Assembly: GCA_001784175.1 (NCBI GenBank)
Contig: MFPR01000035.1
Coordinates: forward strand, 1-42,231
Direction: 5' to 3'
Origin: Candidatus Lindowbacteria bacterium RIFCSPLOWO2_12_FULL_62_27
GTDB taxonomy: Bacteria > Lindowbacteria > 2-12-FULL-62-27
Length of the DNA: 42,231 nt
Shown here: piece by piece, positions 6,885 through 41,032 of the stretch
Layout: each line of letters begins with the position of its first letter
How positions within the stretch are numbered: the stretch's first letter is position 1
Translations under genes and position numbers: made by a program
Notes under the pieces: model-generated
What the model was told of the DNA's origin: nothing
The model's input: the letters and a program-made list of their open reading frames with translations, nothing else
Database searches by the model: none

Positions 6885-6903
6885 GATCCAGTCTCCTCCT
6901 CAA

Positions 6904-7701: not shown

Positions 7702-7769
7702 ATTTTAGATAATACTATTTTATGCCGAATTTGTCAACAAGAATAATACATTTCCCTGCCCACCCCTAT

Positions 7770-8318: not shown

Positions 8319-8428
8319 GGCCTTTTTTGAGAATCCTTCGAATCGATACTCGGCCGCTCATCGTCGAGGAATATTTCTATGGTCTGAATTATCGAGTCCC
8401 TTTCCTGAGCACCTGTTTGGTCACGCAT
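8315..8428 (-). pseudogene. 37-aa ORF, possible remnant of an internally deleted gene (IFLDDER motif)
   Basis: Reads MRDQTGAQERDSIIQTIEIFLDDERPSIDSKDSQKRP*; its TGA overlaps the NIF phosphatase ATG (ATGA). Confidence 0.3.
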
Positions 8429-8444
8429 GGCATTTGCGGCGCTT

Positions 8445-9077
8445 TCAAAGATCCAAGACGATCGGACTGTTGGCGAGATCGTACTCCACGCTCAGAACCG
8501 ATGCGTTCACGAAGATCGTCGACATGCCATCGCGTCTGTGAACTCCGTAGCCCTCATGTATGTGGCCAAACACATGCAACCGCGGTTTGACGCGACGCAC
8601 GGCTTCCAGGAGATCCGCACACCCCGTATTCTCTCCCCGATCAGTCAGATCGCCGATCCCGCGCGGGGGGCCGTGGGTAATGAGTATATCCGTGTCCGCA
8701 GAAATCAAGTTCCACTTTTTCCGGAGTGGCTCTCCCCTGTTTAAGTTGAAGGCCCAGTCATTGAACCACGGTGACCACGGAGTCCCGTAGATCTTCAGCC
8801 CGCCGATGACGGCCGCTTCGTCCTGCAGGTACACGATTCCCCGCACCATCTGCCGGGCCTGATCGTTGTTCAGCTCAAAGAGCCAGTCATGGTTGCCGGC
8901 CACGAGAATCTTGTGCCGATGGGGAAGCTTACGGAACCAAGCCAGAAAATCCTCGACCTGCGATGTCGTTCCGGAACCGGACATGTCTCCGGCATGGATA
9001 ATCATGTCGCCGTCCGGAATTTTGACGTTCCAGTGTTGGTTGTGGGTGTCTGCGATCAGAACTATTTTCATGCTCAT
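8445..9077 (-). CDS. Calcineurin-like metallophosphoesterase (MPPED/239FB-like)
   Basis: ADTH, HAGD, AGNHD, ITHGPP, GHIHEGYG, NAS motifs. Confidence 0.92.
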   Translation of the reverse strand: MSMKIVLIADTHNQHWNVKIPDGDMIIHAGDMSGSGTTSQVEDFLAWFRKLPHRHKILVAGNHDWLFELNNDQARQMVRGIVYLQDEAAVIGGLKIYGTPWSPWFNDWAFNLNRGEPLRKKWNLISADTDILITHGPPRGIGDLTDRGENTGCADLLEAVRRVKPRLHVFGHIHEGYGVHRRDGMSTIFVNASVLSVEYDLANSPIVLDL

Positions 9078-9132
9078 GATATTCCAATACGTGGAGGCGG
9101 CGTGGAGTGTGACAGGTTCCGGCTATTTTGGA

Positions 9133-10143
9133 TCAAAAAAACCTAGTCTGCCGCTTCCGCGGATTCCACGGGTCGAATTCCAGCGGCGCCGTCGAGATGG
9201 GGTTCAGGCCCATGTCCAAAAAAGTCTGGTCGGTGATCTCCTCACCGGCCCGGAACTTCCGCATGATCTTCGCCATTTTCTCGTTGTAATCATGCGGGAA
9301 CTTGTGGCGGATAGTTGCGAGGGGGCTGCAGACGCCGGGATCCGGCTCGTATTTCTGCGGAACGTCAATGATACAGCACGCGTCGGCACCGGATGAGATT
9401 ATCCCGAGGCAGACGATTCTCGTCCGTCCGATCCGCCCCTCAAATCGCCGATGATTGTGCCCGCAAAAATGGTAGGTAGGCCGGACGGCATCCACTATCT
9501 CGCGAATGGGATCCTTGCCGTACGAAAGTATCTGCGGGGCACCTACCCGCCACAGGGATGCCAGGCGCTTGGCTTCTTCCTCGGAGACCAGTCCTGCTGG
9601 CCATTCATGGCTAAGAAAAATATCAACCTGTCGGTTCCGGCACGCCTTGATCAGGCTCTGCACTTCATCGCGCCGAAAATGAGAATTCTCCCTTGATGCC
9701 CGCCAGCCAGTCGCGTCTCCGCGCCGCCGGCGGCGAGCGCTCGGCTCATCATAATCAGCTTCGGAAAAATTTCCCGAGAGACCGGCCACCGTAATGCCGT
9801 TATAAAGGGTGATGACACCCCACCGGCCGAGAAACTGTAAATTCGGGATGAGATACGGATACAATTTTCTCCCTGGATCATGATCCTCGAGTTGTCCGAA
9901 CACATCATGATTGCCTCCGACGAAAATCGTTGGCGTGGGAATTTCCTTCTCTCCGCTCCAGTAAGCCGGAAAACTTTTCACGCGGCGATATTTCGCCGGC
10001 GCCTGGAGTTGCAGCAAATCCTCCTCATCACGGACGGGTTCCAGATCGCCAACCTGCAGACAAAGGTCGGGCTGGTGGGCTTCCATCAGCTGAACCATCG
10101 CGTCGAAATCTCCGTGCACGTCGCCGATCGCCAGGATTTTCAT
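9133..10143 (-). CDS. Metallophosphoesterase resembling RNA lariat debranching enzyme Dbr1
   Basis: GDVHG, VGDLEPVRDEEDL..APAKYR..F..YWSGEKEIPTPTIFVGGNHD, PNLQFLG, AGLSGNF, VDIFLSHEWP, RPTYHFCGHNH. The ATG at 10143 overlaps the upstream stop (ATGA). Confidence 0.85.
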   Translation of the reverse strand: MKILAIGDVHGDFDAMVQLMEAHQPDLCLQVGDLEPVRDEEDLLQLQAPAKYRRVKSFPAYWSGEKEIPTPTIFVGGNHDVFGQLEDHDPGRKLYPYLIPNLQFLGRWGVITLYNGITVAGLSGNFSEADYDEPSARRRRRGDATGWRASRENSHFRRDEVQSLIKACRNRQVDIFLSHEWPAGLVSEEEAKRLASLWRVGAPQILSYGKDPIREIVDAVRPTYHFCGHNHRRFEGRIGRTRIVCLGIISSGADACCIIDVPQKYEPDPGVCSPLATIRHKFPHDYNEKMAKIMRKFRAGEEITDQTFLDMGLNPISTAPLEFDPWNPRKRQTRFF

Positions 10144-26170: not shown

Positions 26171-27557
26171 GAGAAATTGTCAAATGTTGTGGATCGCATG
26201 ATCAAGCGGCGATCCTTTCTTGCTCCTGAAATTGAACTCCATCTATGAAACGAATACCGTCCCGAACGAGTGCAACGAGTTCGGGTGCGTGAACTTTGGA
26301 CCAGCGTTTCTGCGCCGACTCCAACAACTTGAAGGCCATCATCAGCCCGGCGGTCCGGGATCCGGCGCCTTTCGTCACGCGCGTGCGGAGTTTGACGGTG
26401 GCGAAGGCCGACTCGATGGGATTGGTCGTCCGCAGATGTTTCCAGTGCGCGGCCGGGAAATCGAAATGCACGGCCAGGGCCTTACGATCCTTGAGCAGAC
26501 ACTCGGTGGCCTTGGGATATTTCGCCTGATACTCGGCCTCGAAGCGATTTGTTTCCTTGCTGAAAGTTTCCCGATCCGGCGCGTTCATAATTTCATGCAA
26601 CAAACGCTTGGCTTGGGGCTGGAGACGTTTTGGAAGTTTGTCCAGGACGTTGGCGATTTTATGTACCCAGCAGCGGCTTTCTTTGGTCTGCGGCCAAACA
26701 TTGCGGACCGCGGCCCAGAAGCCGAGCGCGCCGTCGCCGACGGCCAAGACCGGTGCTTTCATGCGGCGGCGTTTCAAATCCCGCAACACGCTTGCCCAAG
26801 ACTCCGTTGATTCGCGATAGCCGTCTTCGATTGCGACCACTTCCTTGTCTCCTTCCCTCGTCACACCGACAATCACCAGAAGACAGAGATTTTCTTCTTC
26901 GAGGCGGATCGACAGATGAACGCCGTCAGCCCAGAGATAGACATAATCTTTCTGCGACAAATCGCGCCGGCGGAATGCTTCATATTCCGCCTCCCAGACT
27001 TTTTTCAGCCGCGTGATCGTGGTCGCCGACAGTCCTTTCGCCTCATCGCCGAACAGGGCGCTCAGCGCCTCTCCGAAAGCTCCGGTTGACAGACCTTTCA
27101 AATACAACAGCGGCAAGACCTCCGTGACGTTTGCCGATTTCCGCAGATACGGCGGTAACACCACGCTTCGGAATCGTTTTCCTTCTCGCCCGTCGACGAC
27201 ACGCGGCGCCTCAATCACCACTTCACCCGACCCCACCAGCACTTTCCGCGGGCGGCCATATCCGTTGCGGGTCACCAGCGCGCGGTCTTTTGCGTCGCGA
27301 TATTCCTTCAGTCGCTGGACGTATTCATCCGTCTCGGCCTCCAACGCCTCGACGATCATCCGGCGAGCACCGCACCGGGCCAGATCATCCAAACTGACTT
27401 GCACCTCTGGCGTTTCTTTCTTCCACGTTGTAACTTTGAACATCGGCGTTCCTCCTTCGCCCGGTTCGAGCCGGGTTTTTGATTTGACACTCCGGTCAAA
27501 TCGGAAGGATACGCCGCTTTTTTGTATCACTCAATCCACAACTTTCGGTTATATCTC
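26171..27557 (-). mobile_element. IS256-family insertion sequence, 1387 bp
   Basis: Imperfect TIRs gagaaattgtcaaatgttgtggat and gagatataaccgaaagttgtggat; 9-bp TSD gaatttatt at 26162-26170 and 27558-27566. Confidence 0.95.
26202..27443 (-). CDS. IS256-family DDE transposase
   Basis: RNGY, LYLKGLST, YLWADGV, GYRESTESW, VGDGALGFW, RCWVHK, RTTNPIES; AAGGAGG RBS before MFKVT. Confidence 0.96.
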   Translation of the reverse strand: MFKVTTWKKETPEVQVSLDDLARCGARRMIVEALEAETDEYVQRLKEYRDAKDRALVTRNGYGRPRKVLVGSGEVVIEAPRVVDGREGKRFRSVVLPPYLRKSANVTEVLPLLYLKGLSTGAFGEALSALFGDEAKGLSATTITRLKKVWEAEYEAFRRRDLSQKDYVYLWADGVHLSIRLEEENLCLLVIVGVTREGDKEVVAIEDGYRESTESWASVLRDLKRRRMKAPVLAVGDGALGFWAAVRNVWPQTKESRCWVHKIANVLDKLPKRLQPQAKRLLHEIMNAPDRETFSKETNRFEAEYQAKYPKATECLLKDRKALAVHFDFPAAHWKHLRTTNPIESAFATVKLRTRVTKGAGSRTAGLMMAFKLLESAQKRWSKVHAPELVALVRDGIRFIDGVQFQEQERIAA

Positions 27558-28086
27558 GAATTTATTCCGTCTAAGATAATCAACAAGAACAAGTGCACGT
27601 TCCTCGAAACGATTGGCCGCAACAATCAATATCGGTCCTCTTAAGTGGTTTCTTTCGATTCTACGTTTTATGGTTTTTTCCTCTATCTGTGCGTCTTGGG
27701 AAATTTTCGCCATTTTATAGGCATTTTTGAAAAGGTGGAACCAGCTTATCAACCCCGTTTGCTTGGCATGCTCATCTGCAATTTCAAGTATTCTCGAAGC
27801 GTTCCAACGACTTGTTATAAACGAGGCATATTCCTGTAACTGTGCAACGACCTCTCTCCTCTGCTCTGGATTCTGAACCAATTTACATTCTACGATCAAC
27901 AGGGTACCTGTATCGTCAAGAAAGAGAAGATCAAGCGATCCAATCCCCGCCAAGGGTACTTGCCTGCCGATGGGTACCGCGATCTGCGCCTTGGGGTTTA
28001 TGTCAGCTATGGGAATGACCGTGGGAGTTGATTCGATTAATTGTTCAAACTGCTCTTCTTCCCCACTCGTAAAAGGTTTTTCCTTT

Positions 28087-28497
28087 TCATGGAGTGTTGT
28101 CATATCCGCCTCCTGTCGATAACCCCTCGATTTTCACAGCCCAATCCACTGATCCCACCGTTCCGGACATTCCCCGGATGGCTTCCACCAGTGCATGGAT
28201 GTATATCATGGACGGTTCGTCAGGCTCTACACCGAAATGCTGCCAGCGCCGCTGTTCGAAAAACAGCGCGGTGCGAAGGTCGGTCAGAGAGTCGGGCAGG
28301 CTACCGTCATCCAGATATGCCCCCAGAATCCGGTTCGCGATTTCTCCGCACTTTTCGCACGATTCCCAATGGTGGAAACCTCGAAAGGAGTACGCGAATG
28401 GCTCTATCTCCTCCCAGTGCGCCGTCGGGCCGGGGACGTCAGCCGACGTAAGTTCTGCATCGAAGATGTGCTCCCACCTTTTTTTATCCCAGTCCAT
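28087..28497 (-). CDS. Hypothetical protein; its 3' end is the target of the 6.7-kb insertion
   Basis: AAGGAG RBS; FAYSFRGF..LTDLRTALFFEQRRWQHFG; the C-terminus is duplicated at 21440-21476. Confidence 0.75.
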   Translation of the reverse strand: MDWDKKRWEHIFDAELTSADVPGPTAHWEEIEPFAYSFRGFHHWESCEKCGEIANRILGAYLDDGSLPDSLTDLRTALFFEQRRWQHFGVEPDEPSMIYIHALVEAIRGMSGTVGSVDWAVKIEGLSTGGGYDNTP

Positions 28498-28511
28498 TCG
28501 CCTCTCCTTTC

Positions 28512-29135
28512 TCAATGCTTTTCTTTTCGCTCGTAGTTCGCAATTCCCCTCTTCGCTATTCGAATCGACAATTCAACAAACGTGCATTTGTCCGCTCTGA
28601 AGATTGCGTTCAGGCCGATTTCGGACTCGCGCGTTTTGGCGGCGGCGAAATACTGTTCATCTTCGAATGCGTACAGCAGGGTGGACAGTGCCTCCTGATT
28701 GCGTTTGTGGATATCGATCATGACGCTATATTCGCCACGGATGCAGAATACCGCGCCTGCGTATTCGCTCATGTCGACCACGATGCGGATCAGTTCCGAT
28801 ACGCTGTCCGGCTGGATGGCCTTCTGGGCGCATGTCCTTTTCACGCCAGCGGCTGATGCTGAGATCAACTCGAACAGGCGGTACCAGTACATGCCGTCGT
28901 CATAGAGGTGGTGGGTCAGAAAATACTCGCGGTTTTTTTGTACAAGTTTGAGACCATCCCGGGACAATGACAACAGCTCGTCGAAAAGTCTCCCGTCAGG
29001 CCGTTCGACGGTACTCCATGGCGAATCCTCCTTCCGCGAAAGGTACGCCTTTTCAAGAGCCTGCAATCTGGCCCGGACATCGGCGAAATCCTTTTCCGCG
29101 GGGATCGGGATCAGAGGCATGAGGGAGTCATCCAT
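28512..29135 (-). CDS. Hypothetical helical protein
   Basis: 207 aa, overlaps the upstream gene, operonic. Confidence 0.7.
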   Translation of the reverse strand: MDDSLMPLIPIPAEKDFADVRARLQALEKAYLSRKEDSPWSTVERPDGRLFDELLSLSRDGLKLVQKNREYFLTHHLYDDGMYWYRLFELISASAAGVKRTCAQKAIQPDSVSELIRIVVDMSEYAGAVFCIRGEYSVMIDIHKRNQEALSTLLYAFEDEQYFAAAKTRESEIGLNAIFRADKCTFVELSIRIAKRGIANYERKEKH

Positions 29136-30075
29136 TCATCGTCGCCAGCCCGATGATCTCGTCGGCGGTGCGGAGGCGGGCGTCGGGGGAGTCGATGTCC
29201 CTGTCGAGGAGCGGGTCGATGTCGGGGATTTCAGCTTCGTCGTCAAAATCGAGAATGGCTTGTTCCAAGCCACCGAGATTCGTGGGGTCGGAGGGATCCG
29301 GTTTCTCACCCTGCCGCGCGTAACCCAGCCGCACGAACGCCTTCAAGTGCTCGATCAGCCGCAGGCGGGCCGGTCGATCCATGCCGATGGGCGGCAAGGG
29401 CTCGACTTTGATGCGTCCATCGTGCCAGACCGTCATGAAAACGCCGGATGCGGCGGCGACGTTAACCGCGTCGGGAATGGCGATTTGGACATCCAATCCG
29501 GCCGCTTTCAAGTTGCGATACAGTTGTTTGAGCCATTCGTGATCCAGATCCTCCTCGCGACTGACCAGAGCGTCGAAGTCAGGCTGATCGAACAGGGAGC
29601 GATTGAAGCGAGCGACACGGCCGTCCTTCAGCACGGCTTCGTACCACGCTCGCTCCGGCGTTTCGACAGCCACAATCCGCGTTGCCCGATTCTTGATCCA
29701 CGGCTCGTAGATGACAAACGCGATCATGAACTCGCGGATCCGCAGCGATTCGGCCACTGGATCCCTTGACGGAAGCCCTCCGTAGGGGAAGCGAAAAAAT
29801 AGATGGCCCCAGTCGTCGGCGCGGATGTAATAAAAGGTCCCCGCCCCGTCGCCGCTCCGCCCAAATCCAGTCAGGAGATACCCGTTCGGCGCCCTGCGCA
29901 GAAACTCCTCCGGATCGCCTGCTCGAAAGCGCGGATTCTCGCGCGCGGCGGCAGTTCCATAGATCGCCGTTCCGGGCGCAAGACGCACAAGGTCGAAGTC
30001 GTCGACCAACTGCCACGGGAATGCCCACGCCAGCTCATCGGCGAAGAGACGCTCAAGCTCGGAGGTGTCAGCCAT
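29128..30075 (-). CDS. Hypothetical protein
   Basis: 315 aa, GAGG RBS, acidic C-terminus, operonic. Confidence 0.7.
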   Translation of the reverse strand: MADTSELERLFADELAWAFPWQLVDDFDLVRLAPGTAIYGTAAARENPRFRAGDPEEFLRRAPNGYLLTGFGRSGDGAGTFYYIRADDWGHLFFRFPYGGLPSRDPVAESLRIREFMIAFVIYEPWIKNRATRIVAVETPERAWYEAVLKDGRVARFNRSLFDQPDFDALVSREEDLDHEWLKQLYRNLKAAGLDVQIAIPDAVNVAAASGVFMTVWHDGRIKVEPLPPIGMDRPARLRLIEHLKAFVRLGYARQGEKPDPSDPTNLGGLEQAILDFDDEAEIPDIDPLLDRDIDSPDARLRTADEIIGLATMNG

Positions 30076-30098: not shown

Positions 30099-30764
30099 TC
30101 ATCGTGCCGTGGTTCTCGCAACCCGGCGGCGGCCATGATTGGACTCGACACCGGCGGCTCCATTGTTTCTCTGCGTGTTTGAACGGCCGGCATTCGATAT
30201 TTCACGTGAGACATGACGAAGTTCCATTTTTCCGCCGCAACTACGGTGGAAAAAGCAAACGGTGTTGAATGTCTGTCTCAAAATCTCGGATGCCTTCTCC
30301 AGGCGCGGATATAAAGAGTGAATGGCACCCAAGGCGATTTCATTACCGCTTCCGATGGCCGCAAAATTATCAAAAACGCAAATATCCCGGCTTGCCGCGA
30401 CTTCAAACATTCGCCGCGATGTCGCGACCATGAACGACGCGTCGCTGAGTTTCGAAATTTCATTCTCCTTTGCCGAACCGAGCGAATACCGCTCTTTGAC
30501 AAAGGCATAGACGTGCTGAAAAAAATCGGTCACATCGTGTTCGTTATCGAAAGCGCTCTCATACATATCCCTTTTCCTATCCGCGAAGTAACGCAGGACA
30601 TTTTGAAACAGGACGTTGCCTGAGCAACCTATTAACGCGTTTTTGAAACGCGTGATTTTTGTTACATCTGACCTGTCCGTACGGACAATCCACCCCCAAG
30701 CGGTCAGGCTGTCCGCCATCATCCACATCTCGCCGTTCTTTTTTACTGCCGCAATGACTGTCAT
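30099..30764 (-). CDS. Ntn-hydrolase proteasome-like threonine protease (HslV/BPH-like)
   Basis: Starts M-T-VIAAVKKNGEMWMMADS (Thr1 nucleophile, ADS), KI, IGCSG, AAIGSGNEIALGA. Confidence 0.85.
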   Translation of the reverse strand: MTVIAAVKKNGEMWMMADSLTAWGWIVRTDRSDVTKITRFKNALIGCSGNVLFQNVLRYFADRKRDMYESAFDNEHDVTDFFQHVYAFVKERYSLGSAKENEISKLSDASFMVATSRRMFEVAASRDICVFDNFAAIGSGNEIALGAIHSLYPRLEKASEILRQTFNTVCFFHRSCGGKMELRHVSREISNAGRSNTQRNNGAAGVESNHGRRRVARTTAR

Positions 30765-30789: not shown

Positions 30790-31098
30790 TCAATCCTCCA
30801 CCCGCTTGATCTCGCCGGGTGTGTACTCCCGCTGGCGGCGGATGCGGTAGATGCCGGGTGTGATCGTGATGGCCGCATGCTCTTCGTGGACTAGCGACGT
30901 GTCGCCGGTGACTTCGGCGTAGATATCGCCGTCGGGCGCGTCGAAGAGGGCGACCGCCGATTCGTCGCTGAAGCGATGCCGGTGTCCGGTCGCCTCGCCG
31001 TAGGCTACTGTCAGGTCGGTTCGCGCTTTGAGTTTGTCCGGCATCGGGGATCCGGTTTTTATGATTAAAACGTCGCCCTGTCGGTACTGCTCGCTCAT
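30790..31098 (-). CDS. Small His-rich 'RQGDV' protein, habitual partner of DUF6745-like proteins
   Basis: YRQGDVLI, AYGEATGHRH, HEEH, PGIYRIRRQREY; GGAGG RBS. Confidence 0.85.
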   Translation of the reverse strand: MSEQYRQGDVLIIKTGSPMPDKLKARTDLTVAYGEATGHRHRFSDESAVALFDAPDGDIYAEVTGDTSLVHEEHAAITITPGIYRIRRQREYTPGEIKRVED

Positions 31099-31143: not shown

Positions 31144-33942
31144 TCAAGTCTCCAATACCGGGACGTACTCTTCAGGTTTGAATCCAAATGTCCATGCGGC
31201 GGCGTGGGTGCAGGTTTTCATCTCACCTCCCGCATCCTCCCAGAGTGATTCCTCGCGATCATCCCATTTTCCGCCCGCCGCGCGTCTCGCATCGCCCCGC
31301 CCGGGCGGGACGCGAAGGAACACATCGGCCGCAAGACCCAGACGCACTTTCGCCGGATCGATCACATGCAAAATCACCATGGGCTCGTCGTCCTGCAAAT
31401 AGATACGATAGAGTTTTCGCGGATTGCCCGCCGTATCCCGGTCTTCGTCCAGAACCGCCGGGGACGCCTCGCGAATGAACGAAGCCAGACCCTTGCGCGC
31501 GATCATCAGCCGCCGTACTTCAGCGTTCTTCTCGTTCAGGATTGTCTCGGCCGAGAGAGATTGCGGATCGTTGATCACGACGGGAGGCACAACCACCCCC
31601 CGGTATCGATAAATCTCAAGTCCGTCGCTCAATACCGCGGCCGGTCCGCTTTCTGAATGCAGACGATTCCCGGTCTGATCCACATCAATCTGTTTTGGGC
31701 GCGTCACGATGAAAACGGTCTTCTCCAATGCAAGAAATGTCCATCCTCCGCTTGCGTAGAACTGCTTCATAAAAGCCGCCTCTTTGCTGATTCGCTCAAG
31801 CTCGGCCTGCAAGGCGGCATCGCAGGGATCGGTTGATTGAAAATGCCGGGCGGCCAGGACCGAAAATATGATGTGATTGGACATCACGCGTTTGAGATCC
31901 CAGTAGCAGAAGAATTTTTGGGCGGATGTCAAATTCGGCGTGTCAGCGGTGGTAACCGGAACGTTGCTGTTAAAATGCATTGTGTTCATAATTTTGCCGA
32001 GCGCTTCGTTAACGGATTTCAGAAAAAGATCGCTGTCGTGAACCTGGCTGCAGATTCGTCTCAACCCGCCGGCCAGCATCGGATCAATGAAGATCGCGTC
32101 GTTTAATGCGTGGAGGGATTGCACGCAGGGATGCCTGCTCAACGCGTCCGTGACATGCCGGCCCAACGCCGTGAGGTACATTTGGGACGATTCTCTGCCA
32201 AATGTCGAATAGAGCGCCCGGGCCGGCGCTCCCGAGAATCCGATTTGGGCAAGAAGGTTGTAATTCTCCATTTTCACTTGATCGGACGACGGATGATCTC
32301 GTCCGCAAGCGCCCTCGCGCGTGTGCGACTGCTGGAAGTCCCGGGCGACTTCTGCGGCGATGAGGGGCGCGGCCGGGTGCGAGCAATAGACGATGTCGGC
32401 AGGCAGGCGTTTGCCGTGGATTTCGTAAAAATCGGAGATGGCGTCGAACAGCGCCACTTCATCCACGGCGGCTTGGGAGAGCAGGTCCGTCCAGTCCGAC
32501 ACAACGGAATTGACCATCCCGGTGTCCTCTTCAAACCACAATCGTGCCGGAGATGCGGCGGCACGCGGTTCGGATTGAACGGGACGACGAATCGTTCCAT
32601 CGTGCGATTGAACGGGCACGTTATTCGGGATTTCGTGCCGGCATAGGACGAAACATTTCCGGAAATATTCGGGGACATAAGCGTTGACCAGATTAAAAAA
32701 CGGGCGACGCAGTTCGAGCGAACGAACTTCGAAGATGATTTCAGAATAATATTTCTCCCCGAGCCTTGCCAATTCTTCTTCAAATGCGATTTTTTCCGGC
32801 GCGGATGAAAACTCGATGATGCCCGCGCCATTTACTGTCTGAATATTGCGGAGCAGGGCATTCTCCTGTTTGTCCGACAACGAAACAACCTGCAATATGC
32901 CGTTCTTGCCCTGAAGGCCGGAACAAATGGACGGTGCAAGCGCCCGGCGAACAGCCCCGAGGGAATCAGTCCCATCGGACCGCACAAAGGCGTCCAGAAT
33001 GGTCAGGGTGTCAACAATGGGAATGCGTTCCGACAACAGATCTTGAAACAGCGCGTGTATCTGGTCGAGCCCGAACTTATTGACCGCCATACCTACCATC
33101 AGCTCGTCATCTGCTTTTGCCTTGTCCAAGAGCAACTGTGTCTGGTCCATTGAGAAAAGGGACGCTGCGTGTCGAGCCGCGAATTCAAACAAATGGGAGG
33201 ACATTACCACCGCCGGCTCCGACAGATAATAACCGGATTTCTCGGCGAGTTCCCGCTGGTCGGGCTTGATCCAAATGGCCGGAGCATGAAACAGCCGCTC
33301 GACATACGGAATCCCCTCGATCTCATGCCCTCCCCCGTCGGTTTTCACGGCCAGTACTCTCTCCGGTTCAACGGTGCCGGATTCGATCTGCCTGCCCTTC
33401 AGGAGAAGGGTATATTCCTTTGGCCGAAGTTTCAGGTCATCCCGGATACGGACGGACGGCAGGGTCACACCGAATTCATTGGCGAACCGGGTTCGGACGT
33501 TGCTCACTGCATCAAGGAATCCGTCGGGCCCCGATTGTTCACGATCTACAAGGGGAATCAGATGGTAGGCGATATTGACTTCGAGCTGTTCGACGGATTT
33601 GGGGGTGATCTCATTATAGAAATAGGTCCGCGCCGGCCGATCGATTCGATAGATGAACGCCAGCACCTCGGCCACTGGCTGATAATATTCGGATGGTATC
33701 TCCTCATCAACTTTGACCTTTCTGCATAGAAGGTGCGCGAGGCCCGCATATTCATAATTCGGCAGACCGATTCGCTCTGCGAGCCGAATGACATGCTTGG
33801 CGGTCCTGCCTGACCACTTCCCAATGACACGCGGAGTTTTATCCTGTTCGGGTCGATATGAAATCGCGACCGCCGGACCAGTCCCGCCAAAAATGAGAAC
33901 GTCGGAATCGTTCTTTGGTTGAATTCGAACGTCCATCGTCAC
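31144..33942 (-). CDS. Fusion protein: FlhB C-terminal domain, FlhA (FHIPEP) cytoplasmic domain and DUF6745-like domain
   Basis: AVAISY..PRVIGK..LAHLL..DEEIPSEYYQPVAEVLAFIY (FlhB-C); LEVNIAYHLIPLVD..FGVTLPSVRIRDDLKL..LLSERIPIVDTLTILD (FlhA-C); RLHSESGPA..DG..Y.GVVVP..NAEVRR..FLRVPP..AAAWTFG (DUF6745-like). Confidence 0.85.
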   Translation of the reverse strand: MTMDVRIQPKNDSDVLIFGGTGPAVAISYRPEQDKTPRVIGKWSGRTAKHVIRLAERIGLPNYEYAGLAHLLCRKVKVDEEIPSEYYQPVAEVLAFIYRIDRPARTYFYNEITPKSVEQLEVNIAYHLIPLVDREQSGPDGFLDAVSNVRTRFANEFGVTLPSVRIRDDLKLRPKEYTLLLKGRQIESGTVEPERVLAVKTDGGGHEIEGIPYVERLFHAPAIWIKPDQRELAEKSGYYLSEPAVVMSSHLFEFAARHAASLFSMDQTQLLLDKAKADDELMVGMAVNKFGLDQIHALFQDLLSERIPIVDTLTILDAFVRSDGTDSLGAVRRALAPSICSGLQGKNGILQVVSLSDKQENALLRNIQTVNGAGIIEFSSAPEKIAFEEELARLGEKYYSEIIFEVRSLELRRPFFNLVNAYVPEYFRKCFVLCRHEIPNNVPVQSHDGTIRRPVQSEPRAAASPARLWFEEDTGMVNSVVSDWTDLLSQAAVDEVALFDAISDFYEIHGKRLPADIVYCSHPAAPLIAAEVARDFQQSHTREGACGRDHPSSDQVKMENYNLLAQIGFSGAPARALYSTFGRESSQMYLTALGRHVTDALSRHPCVQSLHALNDAIFIDPMLAGGLRRICSQVHDSDLFLKSVNEALGKIMNTMHFNSNVPVTTADTPNLTSAQKFFCYWDLKRVMSNHIIFSVLAARHFQSTDPCDAALQAELERISKEAAFMKQFYASGGWTFLALEKTVFIVTRPKQIDVDQTGNRLHSESGPAAVLSDGLEIYRYRGVVVPPVVINDPQSLSAETILNEKNAEVRRLMIARKGLASFIREASPAVLDEDRDTAGNPRKLYRIYLQDDEPMVILHVIDPAKVRLGLAADVFLRVPPGRGDARRAAGGKWDDREESLWEDAGGEMKTCTHAAAWTFGFKPEEYVPVLET

Positions 33943-34060
33943 ACCAGTTCCCCTTTCCGCTGGGGATCAGATCGATCAGTGCTGGAAACCCATCCCCAGG
34001 ACGTTAGGCCGGCCGCCATCATCCACATCTGATTGTTCTTATTCAGAGCGGCTATAACGG

Positions 34061-36625
34061 TCACTTCGAACCCCCATCAAAATCTTTTCGATACATCTTT
34101 TCGGTCACGATTCGGTGCCCTGCCGACAACGAAAGCCACACATCGACTTCAGATTCCGACAGGACCGCGATGCCGTCATTCTCCGGCGATAGAATCTCAT
34201 AAATGGCCCGGCGGGTTGTTGGTGGAGCGATTATAACCGGCCGCCGGCCGACAGATTTTGTGGCGGCGATGCTCTCGGCGAAAAACGACTTTGCTTGCTC
34301 CGCAGCCTCCGGCGAACTCATCTCCGCCTGCGTTGCGACACCGGCTTCAATTGCATGGAGAACTCCATCTGTGCCGGCCAGGCGGTCGCAGATGATGGGC
34401 GCCAACACGTGCCGCACCCGCTCGACCATCTCCGAGAGGGGCGCGTTTGAATCGAGCGATAGGAGTGTGTCCAATATAAGTGTGATGTCCTTGATGGGCA
34501 CATGTTCACGCACCAATTCCCGCAAAACGGATGTGACTTTCCTGGCTCCGATGCCTTTTTCGACCTCCTCCGCGAGCCTGGCGCACTTGTCTTTGACGAT
34601 ATCAAGAAGGCTTTCGGTGTGCTCTCGCGAAACGAGCAACCAGGCATTTTGGCGCAACGCGTGCTCCAAGTGTTTTGCGATGACTGTAGGAGGGTCGTAG
34701 ACGGTACAACCGGCTTGGAACGCCCTGACAGCATCATCTGGATCGATCCAAATCCCAGACTGCCCGCTGACCGGCTCCCGCACCACGTCACCTCGAAACT
34801 GCGTTGTCGCGGGGCCGATCGCCATCAGCCGATCTGGCCGTAACTCACCCCGGCCTCGCCGCATGCCTCTGATCAGAATCTCGTAATAACGGGGCGGTAG
34901 GGAGTGAGATACTCTTGTTTCAACTTGCGGAAGGATCAGGCCAAACTCGTTCGCTAAACGAAATCGAATTTGGGCGGACACATCGGCGAAGAACATAGGC
35001 TCAAGTTCATATTCGGTCAGAATATGGACATCTGTCTGAGCAACACTTTCCTCAATTTCCGTCCCTCTCTCACGCCAAATCTTGGGATCAGGCCGCCCGT
35101 GAGCCCTGTCGAAGGCGAGCGCATCCCGATAAACGTCATTTAAGGGCCCACGAAGTGCCGGTTGAACCATCTGGTCTTCGATACAATTATTCCACAACGC
35201 TGTCATCAGGATTTCGTCCGATTTGACGATTTTACGATATTTTCGGGCCCGTTCGATGAGTTTGTCCGCTTTGGCACCGGTCCATTTGGCCTTGCAGACA
35301 GGTTGGACGACACGCAGAGGCTCCATTCGTTCGAGTATGCTGCCGGCTTCGGATGCCTGAGGACACAACTCATAATCGACAGCGACGACTCGCCGGTTCG
35401 AAGTAATCAAGAACTTGAAAGATAATTTCCTGACCTCAGCGGCACTGTCCTCATCAAGCGAATCCGCCTCCAGTTCGGTTTCCTGGGCGCCTGACCCGGC
35501 CGACTCGGGAACACATCTAACGCGACCCTCCTCGAGTTTGACGTTGACAACTGTCGAAGACTTTACAGGCAGAAGGTCGTACATCACAGGTTCGAGTTCT
35601 TTGGCGAGGAGTTGCTGGAGCCCACGCGCGCCTATTTGTGTCTTCACAGCAGTGTGGACGAAGTGGCTGAATACCGCCGGCTCGATGTTCAGCTGCAAGC
35701 CATCTTTTGCAAACTCCGCCGCCGCATGTTTCGATGCCTCCGACTGGACGATGGCAAGCAACGTCTGTTCATCGAGCGGGTCAAACGTGACGACGCGCCG
35801 GAACCGTGCGATCAATTCCGGCATAAACCCGAATTTCTTAAAATGCTCGATGTTATCGATCTCCTCTTCGGTAAAAGCTGCGGCAATCTGTTCGGAGTCG
35901 GATTTGTCCGCAGCACCTAAAAATCCGATGTTCGGCCCGCCATGAATGGAGCGTACGGCAGTCTTGAATCCAGAGAACGCCCCACATGCGATAAATGAAA
36001 TGTGGGATGTCGACATTTGAAAGGACGGATCGTCGTGCCCTTCAGGTACATCGACGCGAGCGCCGTCGAGCATCTTTAGAAGCTCCCGCTGGACACCGTA
36101 TCCGCTGACATCCTGATATTCGCTGCGTTTCCCGGCAGTCTTGTCGAACTCATCCAAGCAGACGACACCACACTCGGCCTTGAAGCGGTTCCCATCAGCC
36201 ACGGTTATCAGGCTCTTCAGAATCTTGATTACATCCATACCGTGATAGCCTGTCTGTGAATAATTGGTCATATCAGCGATGAACACCGGGACTTTGAGAA
36301 TTTTAACAAACAGCAGATCCACCAGATGGGTCTTCCCGCTGCCCGTGGGTCCCATCATGAGGTAATTGAGTTTCGGCGGGCCGACGACCGCATGTCCAGC
36401 ATCTTGATTGGCGGCCGCATATTGCTTGATGCGCTTGATATGCCGGTGCGCCATGAGACACAAAGCCCGGCGGGCCCGCACCTGCCCTCGATACCCCAGT
36501 GACTCCAGTTTATCGAACAATTCTTTCGGTGAAGGCACGACCAACTTCCTCGCCCATTCCCTGAAGGTTTCCCTGTCCTCGTCTTCGTCAGCCACGAAAG
36601 ATTTCACCCCTTTCCGAATAACCAA
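34061..36625 (-). CDS. Fusion protein: ClpX-type AAA+ ATPase (no Zn-binding domain) and FlhA (FHIPEP) cytoplasmic domain
   Basis: GQ..A, GPTGSGKT, TGYHG, LDEFDK, DVSGYGVQRELLKMLDG, FIACGAFSG, IGF, GFMPELIARF, GARGL; C-terminus LANEFGLILPQV..REPVSG..IWI..GCTVYDPPTVIAKHL..VLRELVREHVPIKDITLILDTL. Exact start uncertain. Confidence 0.88.
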   Translation of the reverse strand: MVIRKGVKSFVADEDEDRETFREWARKLVVPSPKELFDKLESLGYRGQVRARRALCLMAHRHIKRIKQYAAANQDAGHAVVGPPKLNYLMMGPTGSGKTHLVDLLFVKILKVPVFIADMTNYSQTGYHGMDVIKILKSLITVADGNRFKAECGVVCLDEFDKTAGKRSEYQDVSGYGVQRELLKMLDGARVDVPEGHDDPSFQMSTSHISFIACGAFSGFKTAVRSIHGGPNIGFLGAADKSDSEQIAAAFTEEEIDNIEHFKKFGFMPELIARFRRVVTFDPLDEQTLLAIVQSEASKHAAAEFAKDGLQLNIEPAVFSHFVHTAVKTQIGARGLQQLLAKELEPVMYDLLPVKSSTVVNVKLEEGRVRCVPESAGSGAQETELEADSLDEDSAAEVRKLSFKFLITSNRRVVAVDYELCPQASEAGSILERMEPLRVVQPVCKAKWTGAKADKLIERARKYRKIVKSDEILMTALWNNCIEDQMVQPALRGPLNDVYRDALAFDRAHGRPDPKIWRERGTEIEESVAQTDVHILTEYELEPMFFADVSAQIRFRLANEFGLILPQVETRVSHSLPPRYYEILIRGMRRGRGELRPDRLMAIGPATTQFRGDVVREPVSGQSGIWIDPDDAVRAFQAGCTVYDPPTVIAKHLEHALRQNAWLLVSREHTESLLDIVKDKCARLAEEVEKGIGARKVTSVLRELVREHVPIKDITLILDTLLSLDSNAPLSEMVERVRHVLAPIICDRLAGTDGVLHAIEAGVATQAEMSSPEAAEQAKSFFAESIAATKSVGRRPVIIAPPTTRRAIYEILSPENDGIAVLSESEVDVWLSLSAGHRIVTEKMYRKDFDGGSK

Positions 36626-36743
36626 TGTGCATCGCGCAGGCCCATCGGTTCCACCACACCTGATACAAATGCGGTTTTTTTTCGGATTTCTGTTTTTTGA
36701 AGAAAATTTATTGATATGGCTGGGGACGGTATGGAGCGGCGGG

Positions 36744-39230
36744 TTACCCCTGGTTGAACACGGCTTCTCTCACTGGCTCGTCTATGCTCTCGAACCGGGA
36801 TGAACTCAATATTTCGGCGACTGCGCTCCTCGGTTTCGGATATCGCGGCGATGCGCCGAACGGCGATATTCGAATCACGTCCTTTGGTGGCGGCTCAAGC
36901 CATACAACCCAGTCATCAGCGAGTTTCCTTTGCGACATCAATCCGGCAGCCTCATCGAACAAGGCACGGTAAATCCTGGCGCGCCGGGCATCTTTCATCG
37001 CTTCGTATGCCAGCGACAGGCCACGGTGGGGATGAGCGTTGGAAGGATCGTCGGCGAGCGCGCGGTGGAAGCATTTAGCGGCATCGTGGTTCTCTCCCGC
37101 GCGAAGGTGGACTCCGCCGAGCAACATCCAGACATAGCTTGCGAATGATGAGCGAATTCCACCTCTCTTGCCCCGGCTCTTTTCAACATCCGATCGTGTC
37201 AGAAGCGGCCAGCGCTCGAAGACCGGCCGCATGGGCCGGGGTGACCTGGCGATTTCGGCGAGAACCTGATCAAGGCGGATTCTGGCATCGGCATCCCGTC
37301 CACGGAAAATCGCGATCTCCGCCAAGTACAGCCACGTGCGGACTTCATCGACCTTGACGTCCAGTGCACGTTGCGCGGCGCGCTCGGCCTGATCATACCT
37401 GCCCAGCAAGATGCAGAGCCGGACGATCCGGCGGATGTTGTGGACATCCGACGGATTGACCTTGCATCCGATATCCGCCCATTTAACAGCCTGTTCGTAC
37501 AGCCCCCGGTTGCGGAACGAATCCGATACCCATCCAATGGTAAATGAATTGCTCGGGTCGATCCGATAGGCCTTCATGAGGACCTTGTCGGCGCGACCGT
37601 TGTCGCCGACGTCACGCAAGACACGCGCAAGACGTTGAAGGGTGCGGACATTGCGGGGGTCGAGCCGGTGCGCCTTTTCCATCCATTCAAGTGCTTTGGT
37701 GTATTTTTTCATGCCTCGATAAACATAGGCGATCTGCCTGACCGCCCACTGATTTTTTGGGATAATCTGATGGCACTTCATGAACCACTGGATCGATTCA
37801 TCCCAGGCGCGCATATCGCGGCAAATATATCCCATCTGCGCTATTGTGCTCGCGTTGTCGGGGTCGATTTCGAGTGCGCGCTTAAGCCACTCCTTGGCCC
37901 GGGTGAAATCGTTTCTTTCACGCTCAAGGAACGACATTTCATTGAGATTGCCGACGTCACGGGGGTCAAGCAGATACGCCCTTTGGAGCCAACGAACGGC
38001 TTCGTCGAACCGGCCGAGTTTGCGGTTGACCTCGCCAACCTTTGCGTAACCGACAGGATCGGCCGGCTGGAGGGCGATGGATTTTTCCAGGAAGCGGAGG
38101 GCGAGTTTTTCGTCCACTCGCCACATTTCGATCGCGGCGATACGGTAGACATACGGATCCTTGGACCTGAGATTGCCGAGCAACCGCGCTTCGCGCCGCG
38201 CCTCATCCAGCCGCCCGCTTCGCCGGAGGATTTTGACAAGAAGCAGTCTGGCGAACACGGCTGTCAGCCTGTCCTCGATACATTCGCGGACCATTTCCTC
38301 CATCTTGCGGTCGGGGTTCAAAGTACCTTGCAGAGTCGCCATGCCCCAAGCGACCTTCCATATTTTTTGTCTCGGAAATTTCTCCGCGAATAATTTGTAC
38401 TGACCGATGACCGACGGCATTCCGAGTTCCTGGCGACATCGAATGTCCATCCATATCGCCGGAAGATAGGTGGGATGCGATTTGAGAACCCGGTCCAGTA
38501 AGAAAAGCGCGTAATCACTGTCGTATGCGTCAAATTTCCTGGCGGCCAGCCGGAAATAATAATCGTCTTTCGCTTCTTTTGCACGAGGAGCCGACGGGTC
38601 CAGAGAAAGATACTGGCCGACGATCGCTGTCCGCGCCTTGCGCTCGCCAATTCCTGAAATCCGCGCCACGGCCGGCGCCGCCAATGACGAAAACCTTAGA
38701 AACTCGTCCAACCTGCGCTGATGAATTTCCGGATCGATCAGTGCGATGGGGGGGCCCATTCTGGTCGAATCGACATTCCCGGCGTCTATGGCAGATCCCC
38801 CGCGGTCCAGGTAAGCCGTAACCTGACGCATGGCTGATGCGTGAACCGTCCCGTGGAATCTGTGTTCCAAGGAGAGAAGCGTTTCCGTCAGCATCGGGAG
38901 TTCAGCCCAGCATTCGACAGCCATCGGGATGTCAAGATCATTCTCTGCCGGGGGGATGCGAATATCACCGGGCGCAAGTTTATCCAGCCGGATTGTCACT
39001 GGGACGAGCCGGAAGGCGGGACCATCCGCCGAGCCATCTGCGCACACGGCGTGCGTCACGACAAAACTCAAGAGGTCCCGGCCGGACTTGACCGACCAAA
39101 ACTGTCCGGGCCGTATTGCGTCCGGTTCTGTTTCGGTCTTGGCCATCCGCCTCAACGTGTTTTTCGTGGTCATGGTGTTATCACTTCCATTGAGCGCGGC
39201 GCCGTTCAGACGGTACCGGCTGTTCTCCAT
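36744..39230 (-). CDS. Multi-TPR protein with an uncharacterised N-terminal domain
   Basis: Many 34-aa repeats (e.g. AKVGEVNRKLGRFDEAVRWLQRAYLLDP, AKEWLKRALEIDPDN); N-terminal IRPGQFWSV..VECWAELP domain. Confidence 0.88.
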   Translation of the reverse strand: MENSRYRLNGAALNGSDNTMTTKNTLRRMAKTETEPDAIRPGQFWSVKSGRDLLSFVVTHAVCADGSADGPAFRLVPVTIRLDKLAPGDIRIPPAENDLDIPMAVECWAELPMLTETLLSLEHRFHGTVHASAMRQVTAYLDRGGSAIDAGNVDSTRMGPPIALIDPEIHQRRLDEFLRFSSLAAPAVARISGIGERKARTAIVGQYLSLDPSAPRAKEAKDDYYFRLAARKFDAYDSDYALFLLDRVLKSHPTYLPAIWMDIRCRQELGMPSVIGQYKLFAEKFPRQKIWKVAWGMATLQGTLNPDRKMEEMVRECIEDRLTAVFARLLLVKILRRSGRLDEARREARLLGNLRSKDPYVYRIAAIEMWRVDEKLALRFLEKSIALQPADPVGYAKVGEVNRKLGRFDEAVRWLQRAYLLDPRDVGNLNEMSFLERERNDFTRAKEWLKRALEIDPDNASTIAQMGYICRDMRAWDESIQWFMKCHQIIPKNQWAVRQIAYVYRGMKKYTKALEWMEKAHRLDPRNVRTLQRLARVLRDVGDNGRADKVLMKAYRIDPSNSFTIGWVSDSFRNRGLYEQAVKWADIGCKVNPSDVHNIRRIVRLCILLGRYDQAERAAQRALDVKVDEVRTWLYLAEIAIFRGRDADARIRLDQVLAEIARSPRPMRPVFERWPLLTRSDVEKSRGKRGGIRSSFASYVWMLLGGVHLRAGENHDAAKCFHRALADDPSNAHPHRGLSLAYEAMKDARRARIYRALFDEAAGLMSQRKLADDWVVWLEPPPKDVIRISPFGASPRYPKPRSAVAEILSSSRFESIDEPVREAVFNQG

Positions 39231-39236
39231 CCATCA

Positions 39237-40412
39237 TTATGAATGTCCTTTTCCCGTAATATTCTGATACTCGTAGCAAATCCTGCAAAAATCACCGACC
39301 AGCAATTCCCGATACCTGTCATAGTATTGAGCGCCTCCACGCTCAATGCCGAGAACATTTCGAAGTTGTTCCATCGCGTTCCGGCGTTCCACGGTGGCTT
39401 GGGCATTCTGCAGACCCACGGTGATACCCAGACGCCGGGCAGACACCTTTTTCACACGCCCCGTCTTGGGATCGTGGTGCAAAGCCATAATCTCGATTTG
39501 TCGGGGCGTCAGGAAATTACCCGAGTGGACCAATCGTTCCAAGTATTCGACATGCCGCTTGTAGTCGACTGCGTCCTGAAGATCAAACGGATCCGCTTCA
39601 AGATCGAGCAAATTCACTTTTTTGGCCGGGTCGTCCGGATCCGGCCGTTCGGCCGGTACGAACGCCGGGTGGCGTTCGTCGAACAGACCCTTGATGATAT
39701 TGCAAAGTGTAGATGTACCAAGGCCGACATTCTTCCGCTCGTAGATATTGCCCGCAACGTCAAACGCTGCCTTGACGATTTCGGCGGCGTATCTCGGACG
39801 AAATTCCCGTATCCGGCTTGCTTGAAACCACGCATCCAGCCCCCGGACGAGGCAGGCACGCGCATTGGAATCCATGGGGACGAGCGGCATTCGGACTCTG
39901 GAGGCCAGAACATACATGCGGTCGGACGCTCCATGCAGGTCCACCGACCCGCTGACGGGGATCAGTTCCCCCTTGGAGGCGGCCATCTTGAAGGCTGTGG
40001 CAATCGGTTTATAGACCCTTTGATTCTTTCGATGAGAACCTTTCATGCAGCGCTCGGCCACCGTCTCCAGCGTCATCACGAACCGGCCCGCTCGGGTCTG
40101 CCCCCGACGCCGGTATTCAGGCGCGATTTTTCTGTTGCGGCCCTTGTAGCCCCTGTAAAGAACCTCCTGTGCGGCGTCAAGGACGTCCTCGTCGGTCGGA
40201 CCGTATACCTGAACATCATCTCTTTGAAACCGCCGCCAGATGCGTCTGACGGTCTCACGGTGCAATTGAACAAACCACGGAGTCGAAAAATCGGCGGCAT
40301 CCGCACTCTTAAAATACTCCTCCACCAATTCCTCGAACTGAGTGTTCGGTATCCGAGACCATCGATGTAGTCGTTGTGCTATTCGTTGGCCGCCTCCTGC
40401 CATCGTCTGCAT
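39237..40412 (-). CDS. Hypothetical protein, possibly a highly divergent sigma-like regulator
   Basis: DEDVLDAAQEV (region-2-like) and LTPRQIEIMAL..SARRLGIT..RRNAMEQLR (region-4-like); ends 6 nt before the TPR gene. Confidence 0.55.
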   Translation of the reverse strand: MQTMAGGGQRIAQRLHRWSRIPNTQFEELVEEYFKSADAADFSTPWFVQLHRETVRRIWRRFQRDDVQVYGPTDEDVLDAAQEVLYRGYKGRNRKIAPEYRRRGQTRAGRFVMTLETVAERCMKGSHRKNQRVYKPIATAFKMAASKGELIPVSGSVDLHGASDRMYVLASRVRMPLVPMDSNARACLVRGLDAWFQASRIREFRPRYAAEIVKAAFDVAGNIYERKNVGLGTSTLCNIIKGLFDERHPAFVPAERPDPDDPAKKVNLLDLEADPFDLQDAVDYKRHVEYLERLVHSGNFLTPRQIEIMALHHDPKTGRVKKVSARRLGITVGLQNAQATVERRNAMEQLRNVLGIERGGAQYYDRYRELLVGDFCRICYEYQNITGKGHS

Positions 40413-40491
40413 AGAACAGGGACATTATTACGGAAACACTCAACTATCAAACCCGTGCAACTCTCTCATTCCGTTTTACCCGTGCGGCGTT

Positions 40492-40865: not shown

Positions 40866-41032
40866 TTCAGCGGGCGCGCACTCATCACCAAAATCAAATT
40901 GGCTTGACCCGGTTGAACCATCTCCGTCGTTTCCCCTTCCCGAGGCTCCTTCAATGGCACCACTTTGGAAAACGATGTACCTCCTGCCTGCTGGATATCC
41001 ACGATCGTCTCTCCCCTTTCGGAAGACAGTGG

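Follow-up and report, generated by a model that had tools for sequence, protein, structure and literature searches.

A ClpX-like AAA+ module fused to gate-less FlhB_C- and FlhA_C-type export-gate domains in a Candidatus Lindowbacteria bacterium

What is a ClpX-like ATPase doing on one polypeptide with cytoplasmic domains of the flagellar export gate? The question is raised by a gene, here called p1, in a 42,231-bp stretch of DNA from Candidatus Lindowbacteria bacterium RIFCSPLOWO2_12_FULL_62_27 (contig MFPR01000035.1; hereafter the window), which is the whole of contig C35 of a 4.39-Mb genome bin (94% complete). A first-pass annotation, made from the letters of the sequence, had described p1 as a ClpX-FlhA_C fusion. 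We find that p1 is one gene and that its product, with hardly any room for doubt as far as sequence can tell, is composed of an AAA+ unfoldase, an acidic linker, a non-cleaving FlhB_C domain and a full FlhA_C domain. This is a new domain architecture in a rare, apparently undescribed system. The gene and its parts are:

34061..36625, minus strand, p1 (ClpX-like AAA+ / FlhB_C-like / FlhA_C), from the open reading frame (ORF) list, Pfam, NCBIfam and PDB alignment
35510..36625, minus strand, AAA+ module without zinc-binding domain, residues 1-372, from Pfam, NCBIfam, PDB alignment and alignment A1 (p1, 12 relatives and the host's own ClpX)
35414..35509, minus strand, acidic linker, approximately residues 373-404 (about 30 residues), from the sequence and an AlphaFold2 (AF2) model
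35072..35413, minus strand, FlhB_C/SctU_C-like domain, approximately residues 405-518, from hhalign and fold search
34064..35056, minus strand, FlhA linker and complete FlhA_C without the transmembrane gate, residues 524-854, from Pfam, TIGR01398, AF2 and the VIA fold search

The p1 frame is open over 854 codons. A start at TTG 36625 gives a protein of 854 aa; the database copy (P0001) begins 10 codons downstream, at GTG 36595, and has 844 aa, and the latter start is the more likely. A second Joint Genome Institute (JGI) assembly is 100% identical to window positions 31496-42231 over 10,736 nt, p1 included. Logan contigs of four public DNA runs, several of which may have fed the same assembly, carry p1 with 0 differences and 0 indels, and one contig covers the entire stretch. 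The sequencing data were also inspected for two separate genes in place of the proposed single-gene fusion; no such break was seen in the contigs of the four runs. Thus, p1 is confirmed as one uninterrupted real gene and is not an assembly artefact.

The N-terminal module of p1 was compared with ClpX at the level of families, solved structures and individual motifs. Pfam recognizes AAA_2 at residues 84-276 (1.4e-16) and ClpB_D2-small at residues 284-352 (6.9e-8). The best NCBIfam model is ClpX NF003745 (1.9e-62, model positions 43-394 of 418) and the best solved ClpX chain is 9ndj_F (2.2e-45). Alignment to solved ClpX chains bore out the motifs that had been read by eye (Walker A/B, sensor, GYHG, PNIGF). 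Walker A GPTGSGKT, Walker B LDEFDK, the Arg-finger box PELIAR and sensor-2 GARGL align with ClpX and are invariant in A1. PNIGF stands opposite the ClpX IGF loop in 9ndj, 8yd0 and 6sfw, a match at motif level in a sequence alignment, and [ILMV]G[FY] occupies this position in 14/14 sequences of A1. Pore-1 reads GYHG opposite the GYVG of ClpX; since GYVG is present in 13/13 other A1 sequences (12 clade members and host ClpX), GYHG is peculiar to p1. The RKH loop is found in host ClpX and in 0/13 clade sequences, p1 among them. With this loop absent and pore-1 altered, p1 is therefore no ordinary ClpX. The module closes with a small C-terminal beta hairpin common to its clade.

The scores of p1 lie under the ClpX equivalog cut-offs (211.5 against 359 bits for NF003745; 184 against 370.75 for TIGR00382), and the HslU model TIGR00390 reaches 66 bits against a cut-off of 362.45, with two short stretches matched. 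The absence of an N-terminal zinc-binding domain, claimed in the first-pass annotation, was also seen here: there is no Pfam match to zf-C4_ClpX in p1, the match to the ClpX model does not begin until model position 43, and the first 60 residues contain a single Cys. Overall, p1 is like ClpX in Walker A/B, the Arg of the PEL[IL][AG]R box, sensor-2, the aromatic pore-1 Tyr and the IGF-type loop. It is unlike ClpX in the missing zinc-binding domain and RKH loop, the GYHG pore-1, the sub-equivalog score, the separate clade and the presence of a 480-residue C-terminal FlhB_C-FlhA_C cassette.

An exhaustive phmmer search of 1.84 billion representatives with p1 gave 11,375 hits, the best 150 of which were considered. 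The nearest relatives of the p1 head are free-standing proteins of approximately 390 aa with 44-46% identity, compared to 35% identity with the host's own ClpX. In A1, the clade shares an LGYRGQ..ARRA N-terminal box. No zf-C4_ClpX was found in the four clade members scanned with Pfam. Among species genomes, members of the clade turned up in records (L016-L027) of Myxococcota, Kofleriaceae among them, of Acidobacteriota (Blastocatellales, Pyrinomonadaceae), and of WOR-3, Spirochaetales and Akkermansiaceae. Elsewhere in the four-genome phylum of the window no member was found, the other hits there being ordinary ClpX with 34-36% identity. Gene neighbourhoods are not conserved: 14 other pieces of the window's cluster gave 0 matches at 12 clade loci. 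Ten neighbour proteins from six of these loci were an EPSP-synthase-family protein, HisG, a response regulator, an M28 peptidase and unknowns, with no ClpP or proteasome-type gene among them. It had been proposed that FlhA_C replaces the adaptor-binding domain of ClpX. This does not hold: the zinc-binding domain was not replaced by FlhA_C because the whole free-standing clade is already without it, and the added module is C-terminal. By sequence comparison, p1 is a paralogue already devoid of the zinc-binding domain that gained a C-terminal module.

The second part of p1 is the export-gate cassette. The first-pass annotation had seen "a linker domain" followed by FlhA_C; FlhA_C is indeed present, and the linker domain turned out to be FlhB_C-like. 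Pfam gave no match for the middle region alone, and BLASTP of this region against FlhB_C of p2, the next gene downstream, which carries a second such cassette, gave an E-value of only 1.8. When a profile of p1 residues 405-518 and their equivalent in the related genome G003 (see below) was compared by hhalign with an FlhB_C alignment (A3), the match was 94.5% with an E-value of 8e-8. In the VIA whole-PDB fold search with this part, all seven entries at ranks 10-16 are SctU/FlhB C-domains, with Z from 9.0 to 6.7; the best is EscU 3bzr_A (Z 9.0, root-mean-square deviation 2.6 over 74 residues) and the lowest is Salmonella FlhB 3b0z_B (Z 6.7). The AF2 model used (p1 395-854) is weak over the FlhB_C part, where the predicted local distance difference test (pLDDT) is 42-61. 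At the place where the NPTH autocleavage site would stand p1 has SNRR, and there is a 14-residue insertion in the domain. NPTH is present in host FlhB and lost in 5/5 gate-less FlhB_C copies. Judged by its sequence, the FlhB_C-like domain of p1 is divergent and non-cleaving.

Pfam FHIPEP is matched at p1 residues 550-828 (1.7e-48); since profile positions 357-653 of 657 are covered, p1 holds the cytoplasmic part of FHIPEP alone. TIGR01398 is matched with 1.1e-46 and 159 bits against a cut-off of 772. Model pLDDT over this part is mostly at least 90, and the fold aligns in all four subdomains with Vibrio nonameric FlhA_C and Salmonella FlhA_C (Z 29.2 to 7amy_A over 311 residues; Z 29.1 to 3a5i_A over 312 residues). 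The chaperone-binding dimple of Salmonella FlhA_C comprises D456, F459 and T490, according to the consulted portion of PMC8166844. At these positions host FlhA has E/F/T and p1 has E/S/K; among five aligned gate-less copies the Phe is kept in 1/5 (p2) and the Thr in 0/5.

Compared with FlhA/SctV and FlhB/SctU, p1 retains both domains of the substrate-docking platform and both folds. It differs in having no transmembrane domains and in carrying both domains on one polypeptide. Further departures from FlhA and FlhB are the lost NPTH and changed dimple residues in p1, and the fusion to an unfoldase in p1 or to DUF6745 in p2. By defining features p1 is neither a ClpX equivalog, nor HslU, nor FlhA, nor FlhB.

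In the AF2 model, residues 1-24 (p1 395-418), which overlap the last ten residues of the acidic linker, have pLDDT below 50, and the linker is probably flexible. This bears on the hexamer-versus-nonamer puzzle pointed out in the first-pass annotation, namely the joining of a hexameric AAA+ ring to a nonameric FlhA ring. The puzzle is real and is softened by the approximately 30-residue linker: with the linker probably flexible, the mismatch needs no rigid-complex solution.

Other gate-less proteins were encountered during the analysis. A third one in the same genome (G000:C30:169226-172105; L004 1294..2508) has 404 aa and the reverse domain order, FHIPEP 331-554 followed by FlhB_C (1.2e-6); its N-terminus resembles a twin-arginine translocation (Tat) signal (RRGFF) and the next ORF codes for a 502-aa P-loop protein. 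In a Myxococcota-type phylum, locus G305:C9:17000-33000 (L137) codes for two gate-less FlhA_C proteins side by side, 482 and 494 aa long (ORFs 7956..9404 and 6375..7859, both on the minus strand) and followed by a 687-aa coiled-coil protein, and G300:C371 for a single one of 472 aa. The G305:C9 pair and the p1/p2 pair are alike as neighbouring membrane-less FlhA_C genes; each FlhA_C of the window is preceded by FlhB_C.

A search for the fusion elsewhere was undertaken. When 5.8 billion protein clusters were searched by word index, 7,997 candidates were scored and 14 were hits, of which only the protein of the window had both halves. A Pfam scan of ten proteins (nine among the phmmer best 150 of 11,375, and P0014) revealed no ClpX-like AAA+ with FHIPEP; the nine include every protein of the best 150 with room for a second module, and a weak fusion may rank below 150. 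No second fusion was found in the four genomes of the phylum. JGI metagenome contigs queried with p2 yielded three loci, all 100% identical to the window, and 262 records among 72,556 plasmids matched p1, 0 of them covering at least 80% of it. In 301 genomes of the Myxococcota-type phylum, searched with the p2 cassette, none among the matches listed spans FlhB_C and FlhA_C, and there were 132 further matches beyond those listed. Matches to the p2 cassette in phage collections resemble ordinary flhB/flhA fragments. Thus, the fusion is found in one uncultured organism only. A search of open-access papers and preprints found none on soluble FlhB_C-FlhA_C cassettes, DUF6745 or a ClpX-FlhA_C fusion.

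The p1 gene belongs to an array of ten same-strand genes running from 40412 to 27549 that overlap or are separated by gaps of at most 148 nt. Their order is a 391-aa unknown, a tetratricopeptide repeat (TPR) protein, p1, p2, small102, an N-terminal nucleophile (Ntn) peptidase, the unknowns g315, g207 and g142, and g184:

39237..40412, minus strand, first gene of the array (g391), 391 aa, no family, 6 nt from the TPR gene
36744..39230, minus strand, TPR-array protein, 828 aa, directly upstream of p1, many TPR families in Pfam
33939..34064, minus strand, relic of the 5' end of a BPH-like gene, 41 codons, from identity to the intact BPH-like protein
31144..33942, minus strand, p2 (FlhB_C / FlhA_C / DUF6745-type module), 932 aa, from Pfam, start probably ATG 33936
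30790..31098, minus strand, small102, 102 aa, phrog_27831 (2.8e-17)
30099..30764, minus strand, BPH-like Ntn (proteasome-family) peptidase, 221 aa, 5ovs (1.4e-12), 5ovu (5.7e-10) and phrog_1040
27549..30075, minus strand, g315, g207, g142 and g184, tightly packed or overlapping downstream genes, from ORF coordinates

The cassette is therefore present in two proteins of the operon, p1 and p2. In p2, Pfam recognizes Bac_export_2 at 11-97, FHIPEP at 116-442 and DUF6745 at 709-889; the Atlas copy of p2 begins at residue 3. Contig L098 of a third JGI assembly (2,989 nt) corresponds to window 32298-34344 and departs from the locus within p2 after residue 548, continuing with a coding sequence that by eye, without a search, resembles serine hydroxymethyltransferase. 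Either L098 is chimeric or the junction differs; database protein P0166 (559 aa) derives from this contig.

The only protease gene near p1 is Ntn-type and not ClpP, in agreement with the initial reading of the locus. Its best solved relative is BPH (5ovs, 1.4e-12; 5ovu, 5.7e-10), with HslV at only 0.08. It matches phrog_1040, "peptidase HslV family", with 9.5e-15 and scores below the cut-off of Pfam Proteasome (20.7 against 22.4 bits). The protein starts with Met-Thr; Thr1 aligns to 5ovs_A, as do Asp and Lys, and GSG is retained. The peptidase is probably active. A scan of viral contigs with it found nothing.

This peptidase resembles BPH as its closest solved relative, with Thr1 aligned and GSG kept, and is unlike it in that the similarity is distant only and falls under the Pfam cut-off. 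Another difference lies in gene context: according to the consulted portion of PMC5777263, characterised BPH genes form part of operons for arginine biosynthesis, pyruvate dehydrogenase or Hsp33 in which no AAA+ companion was found, whereas the peptidase of the window shares an operon with a ClpX-like ATPase. In the portions of PMC5777263 and PMC8665760 consulted, BPH forms heptameric rings and no partner unfoldase is known for it. ClpP is heptameric and ClpX hexameric, and ClpX docks on the ClpP ring (PMC9035409, in part). Since ClpX docks on a seven-fold ring and solved BPH is seven-fold, a ClpX-type partner is geometrically plausible for a BPH ring. The operon is also reminiscent of HslUV: in both, the ATPase comes from the same larger AAA+ group and is encoded alongside an Ntn peptidase of the HslV/BPH group that has a Thr nucleophile. 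It differs from HslUV in that the ATPase of p1 is ClpX-like and not HslU, and that the peptidase is nearer BPH than HslV. HslU docks via its C-terminal tail; in p1 the corresponding tail of the ATPase is buried within the fusion.

A relic in the 118-nt gap between p1 and p2 adds to the connection. It fills the gap and has 63% amino acid identity to residues 1-35 of the intact BPH-like protein. Nucleotide identity is roughly 70%, by hand count on the alignment, which indicates that the relic is old. Its GTG overlaps the TGA of p1 (GTGA), and its own TGA lies 2 nt ahead of the p2 ATG. It follows that a BPH-like gene was at one time translationally coupled to a gene of the p1 type. The relic is still an open frame (the chance of an open 41-codon stretch at random is, by rough estimate, about 1 in 7) and could serve as a translational relay from p1 to p2, because it overlaps the p1 stop and ends 2 nt before the p2 ATG. 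Run X2 has a contig in which 41 nt of the relic match the 5' part of the intact BPH-like gene equally well, without difference, while window positions 30690-30730 and 33990-34030 are only about 80% alike; the X2 stretch may be a gene-conversion variant in that sample.

The host genome contains one ClpP gene, located beside its canonical ClpX, and no canonical HslV was found in it. A second proteasome-like gene of the genome (G000:C43:132165-132917; L102 1495..2247) codes for a 250-aa protein that looks like Anbu and adjoins a gene which is transglutaminase-like by eye, a pairing that also occurs in Anbu operons.

A p2 orthologue was found in just one further organism, G003, which belongs to the same family and another genus; its genome is 88% complete and the system was seen on two short contigs. 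The orthologue, P0167, has 930 aa, is 58-60% identical to p2 and has the same architecture. Directly upstream, with the same 2-nt spacing, lies a p1 equivalent whose FlhB_C is above the Pfam cut-off (Bac_export_2, 4.5e-9) and whose FlhA_C is present in its first half (1.5e-23). In place of an ATPase it has a head with HExxH and, after it, an EG box. The ESM-Atlas clusters closest to this head are Peptidase_MA_2 (0.96), the others being M9, M61 and DUF1570, which are MA-clan families. From the motif and the feature search, this head is likely an MA-clan metallopeptidase, at the level of a lead. No BPH-like gene was found in the 88%-complete genome. Because G003 has a peptidase-type head and no BPH-like gene was found there, the head would be either a peptidase or an unfoldase accompanied by a peptidase.

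Other components are shared by both systems. By blastp, small102 is 67% identical, the C-terminal part of g315 33% (3e-17) and g184 35% (3e-15), and TPR proteins are present in the G003 system too. In both genomes small102 follows a DUF6745 gene (in G003, L116 4283..5677 and 3929..4234). The G003 system additionally has a phosphatase and a free DUF6745 paralogue.

We propose, tentatively and with confidence a little short of even, that p1 is the proteolytic arm, powered by ATP, of a rare system of the conflict type whose basis is formed by gate-less export-gate domains. In this proposal p1 would act as a ClpX-type unfoldase with its recognition module at the C-terminus. The FlhB_C-FlhA_C cassette would be an assembly or target-binding scaffold of a multi-gene system that would further comprise TPR proteins, a small phage-family protein and a PD-(D/E)XK-like nuclease. 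The cassettes would join p1 and p2, perhaps via FlhA_C-type ring contacts, or hold the target. From the cassette, bound proteins would pass to the AAA+ ring, which would unfold them and thread them into a self-compartmentalising peptidase, most likely the co-encoded BPH-like one. Observed are the architecture and motifs of p1, the order of the genes, the relic and the sister system in G003; ring assembly, the docking of ATPase and peptidase, the substrates and a defence role are what we infer. Operon position, the relic and the head swap suggest that p1 and the BPH-like peptidase are a candidate binding pair. A complex prediction for the AAA+ module of p1 with two BPH-like copies scored 0.01, far under its mark of 0.32, and counts neither for nor against the pair. 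A more elaborate version, in which the ClpX-type unfoldase is wired via both docking domains to the BPH-group peptidase, the gate mimic selects and destroys proteins, and the whole is the protease arm of an undescribed conflict class with a swappable head, is speculative and on balance unlikely.

Several observations weigh against the proposed proteolytic role. The intact BPH-like gene is located two genes downstream of p1 and does not adjoin it. The IGF-type motif is present in all 14 sequences of A1, free-standing clade members included, and the 12 clade loci have no BPH-like neighbour, which fits docking on housekeeping ClpP. A GYHG sequence in pore-1 could weaken the grip on substrate. In subdomain D1 of FlhA_C, p1 has LPQVETRV (residues 573-580; window 34886-34909) at the place of LPxVRIRD, which is kept in host FlhA and in the four other gate-less copies aligned, p1 being the sole departure. 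Pfam and PDB sequence searches with the G003 head found nothing, and the covariation of head and peptidase is seen in two systems only. Finally, PADLOC-DB 2.0 contains 0 families matching p1, p2 or the BPH-like protein.

The alternative that survives best is that p1 feeds the housekeeping ClpP of the host by its IGF-type loop and that the BPH-like peptidase acts alone. We consider it rather improbable and keep it at that level because the IGF motif, conserved as it is in free-standing members, speaks just as much for ClpP. The universal [ILMV]G[FY] of A1 is joined by the contexts of the clade genes, which are free-standing and housekeeping-like (EPSP-synthase-family, HisG and response-regulator genes) with no dedicated peptidase, by the single host ClpP that adjoins a canonical ClpX, and by the absence of a partner unfoldase for BPH in the same portions of PMC5777263 and PMC8665760. 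Against such a role speak the BPH-like relic that overlaps the p1 stop codon, the sister system, where the head is of peptidase type and no BPH-like gene was found, and the missing RKH loop and altered pore-1.

A role as flagellar regulator or antagonist was also considered: soluble cassettes would mimic the gate and catch export substrates or chaperone complexes, and the unfoldase would remove them, in quality control or in flagellar shutdown by a mobile element. The host does possess a canonical flhB-flhA pair, FlhA_C and FlhB_C are docking sites for export substrates and chaperones (PMC8166844, in part), and FlhA_C of p1 is complete, with four subdomains and Z 29. The residues which such docking would engage have, however, changed, the dimple reading E/S/K in p1 with Phe in 1/5 and Thr in 0/5 gate-less copies, and NPTH is lost in 5/5. 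The cluster lies on a mobile defence-type island far from flagellar genes, and its partners (DUF6745, nuclease, TPR proteins) have no flagellar link. Because of the changed dimple residues and the mobile-island context we have lowered this reading and regard it as improbable.

Slightly less probable still is a non-proteolytic remodeller, whose AAA+ ring would assemble, disassemble or reset FlhA_C-type oligomers of p1 and p2 with no peptidase involved. ClpX-family ATPases can work as chaperones in the absence of ClpP. Separate roles are named for the ClpX unfoldase (PMC12211083, in part), and p1 is set apart from degradative ClpX by GYHG and the lack of the RKH loop; yet p1 keeps an IGF-type docking loop, its operon holds a peptidase gene and the relic of another, and in the sister system the head is of peptidase type. 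An assembly chimera or a decaying pseudogene without function, to which the occurrence of the fusion in one organism and the short third assembly L098 that leaves the locus inside p2 might point, is very improbable in view of a second assembly and contigs of four runs that are identical without indels, 854 open codons with all catalytic motifs intact, and 58-67% conservation of p2 and its neighbours in another genus.

For g391, g315, g207 and g142 the searches yielded neither a family nor a solved relative. In PADLOC-DB 2.0 only g184, which is nuclease-like, was matched (candidate PDC-S11, 3.4e-13), plus a weak match of the TPR protein. DUF6745 clusters are about half viral. An AF2 model of the p2 module (p2 470-932; window 31144-32535) has pLDDT 79.5 and a predicted template modelling score of 0.76; the fold had no Foldseek match in PDB at E of at most 1e-3, and the best VIA Z was 4.9. 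In its helical N-lobe, a stretch rich in Cys and His is strongly conserved, HPA..IAA..ARDF..SH.REGACGRDHP. The rest of the contig contains the following:

709-2511, serine recombinase
8445-10224, two metallophosphoesterases
12002-14884, GmrSD
15034-21415, UvrD-like helicase and PD-(D/E)XK nuclease
22388-24109, RAMA/PDDEXK_4 nuclease
26202-27530, Mutator-family transposase, next after the ten-gene array

By its gene content, the contig is a mobile island rich in defence genes. We weighed a prophage origin and rejected it: the phage links are at the family level alone (phrog_1040, phrog_27831, DUF6745), and none of the genes seen in the window is structural in a phage sense.

The p1 protein is known from one uncultured organism and its function is read from sequence. 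In it, both docking domains of the export gate have moved together off the membrane and are fused to an unfoldase, so that recognition becomes testable in soluble form. The head swap between two related genomes, unfoldase plus peptidase in one and a likely metallopeptidase in the other, is a natural experiment, and because the heads swap in this way it points to proteolysis as the output of the system family. The ClpX-type unfoldase may feed the BPH-like peptidase, a pairing not described before, and the operon offers a concrete candidate unfoldase for the BPH group from an AAA+ family that natively docks on a seven-fold ring. If true, p1 would be the first AAA+ partner for BPH-group peptidases.

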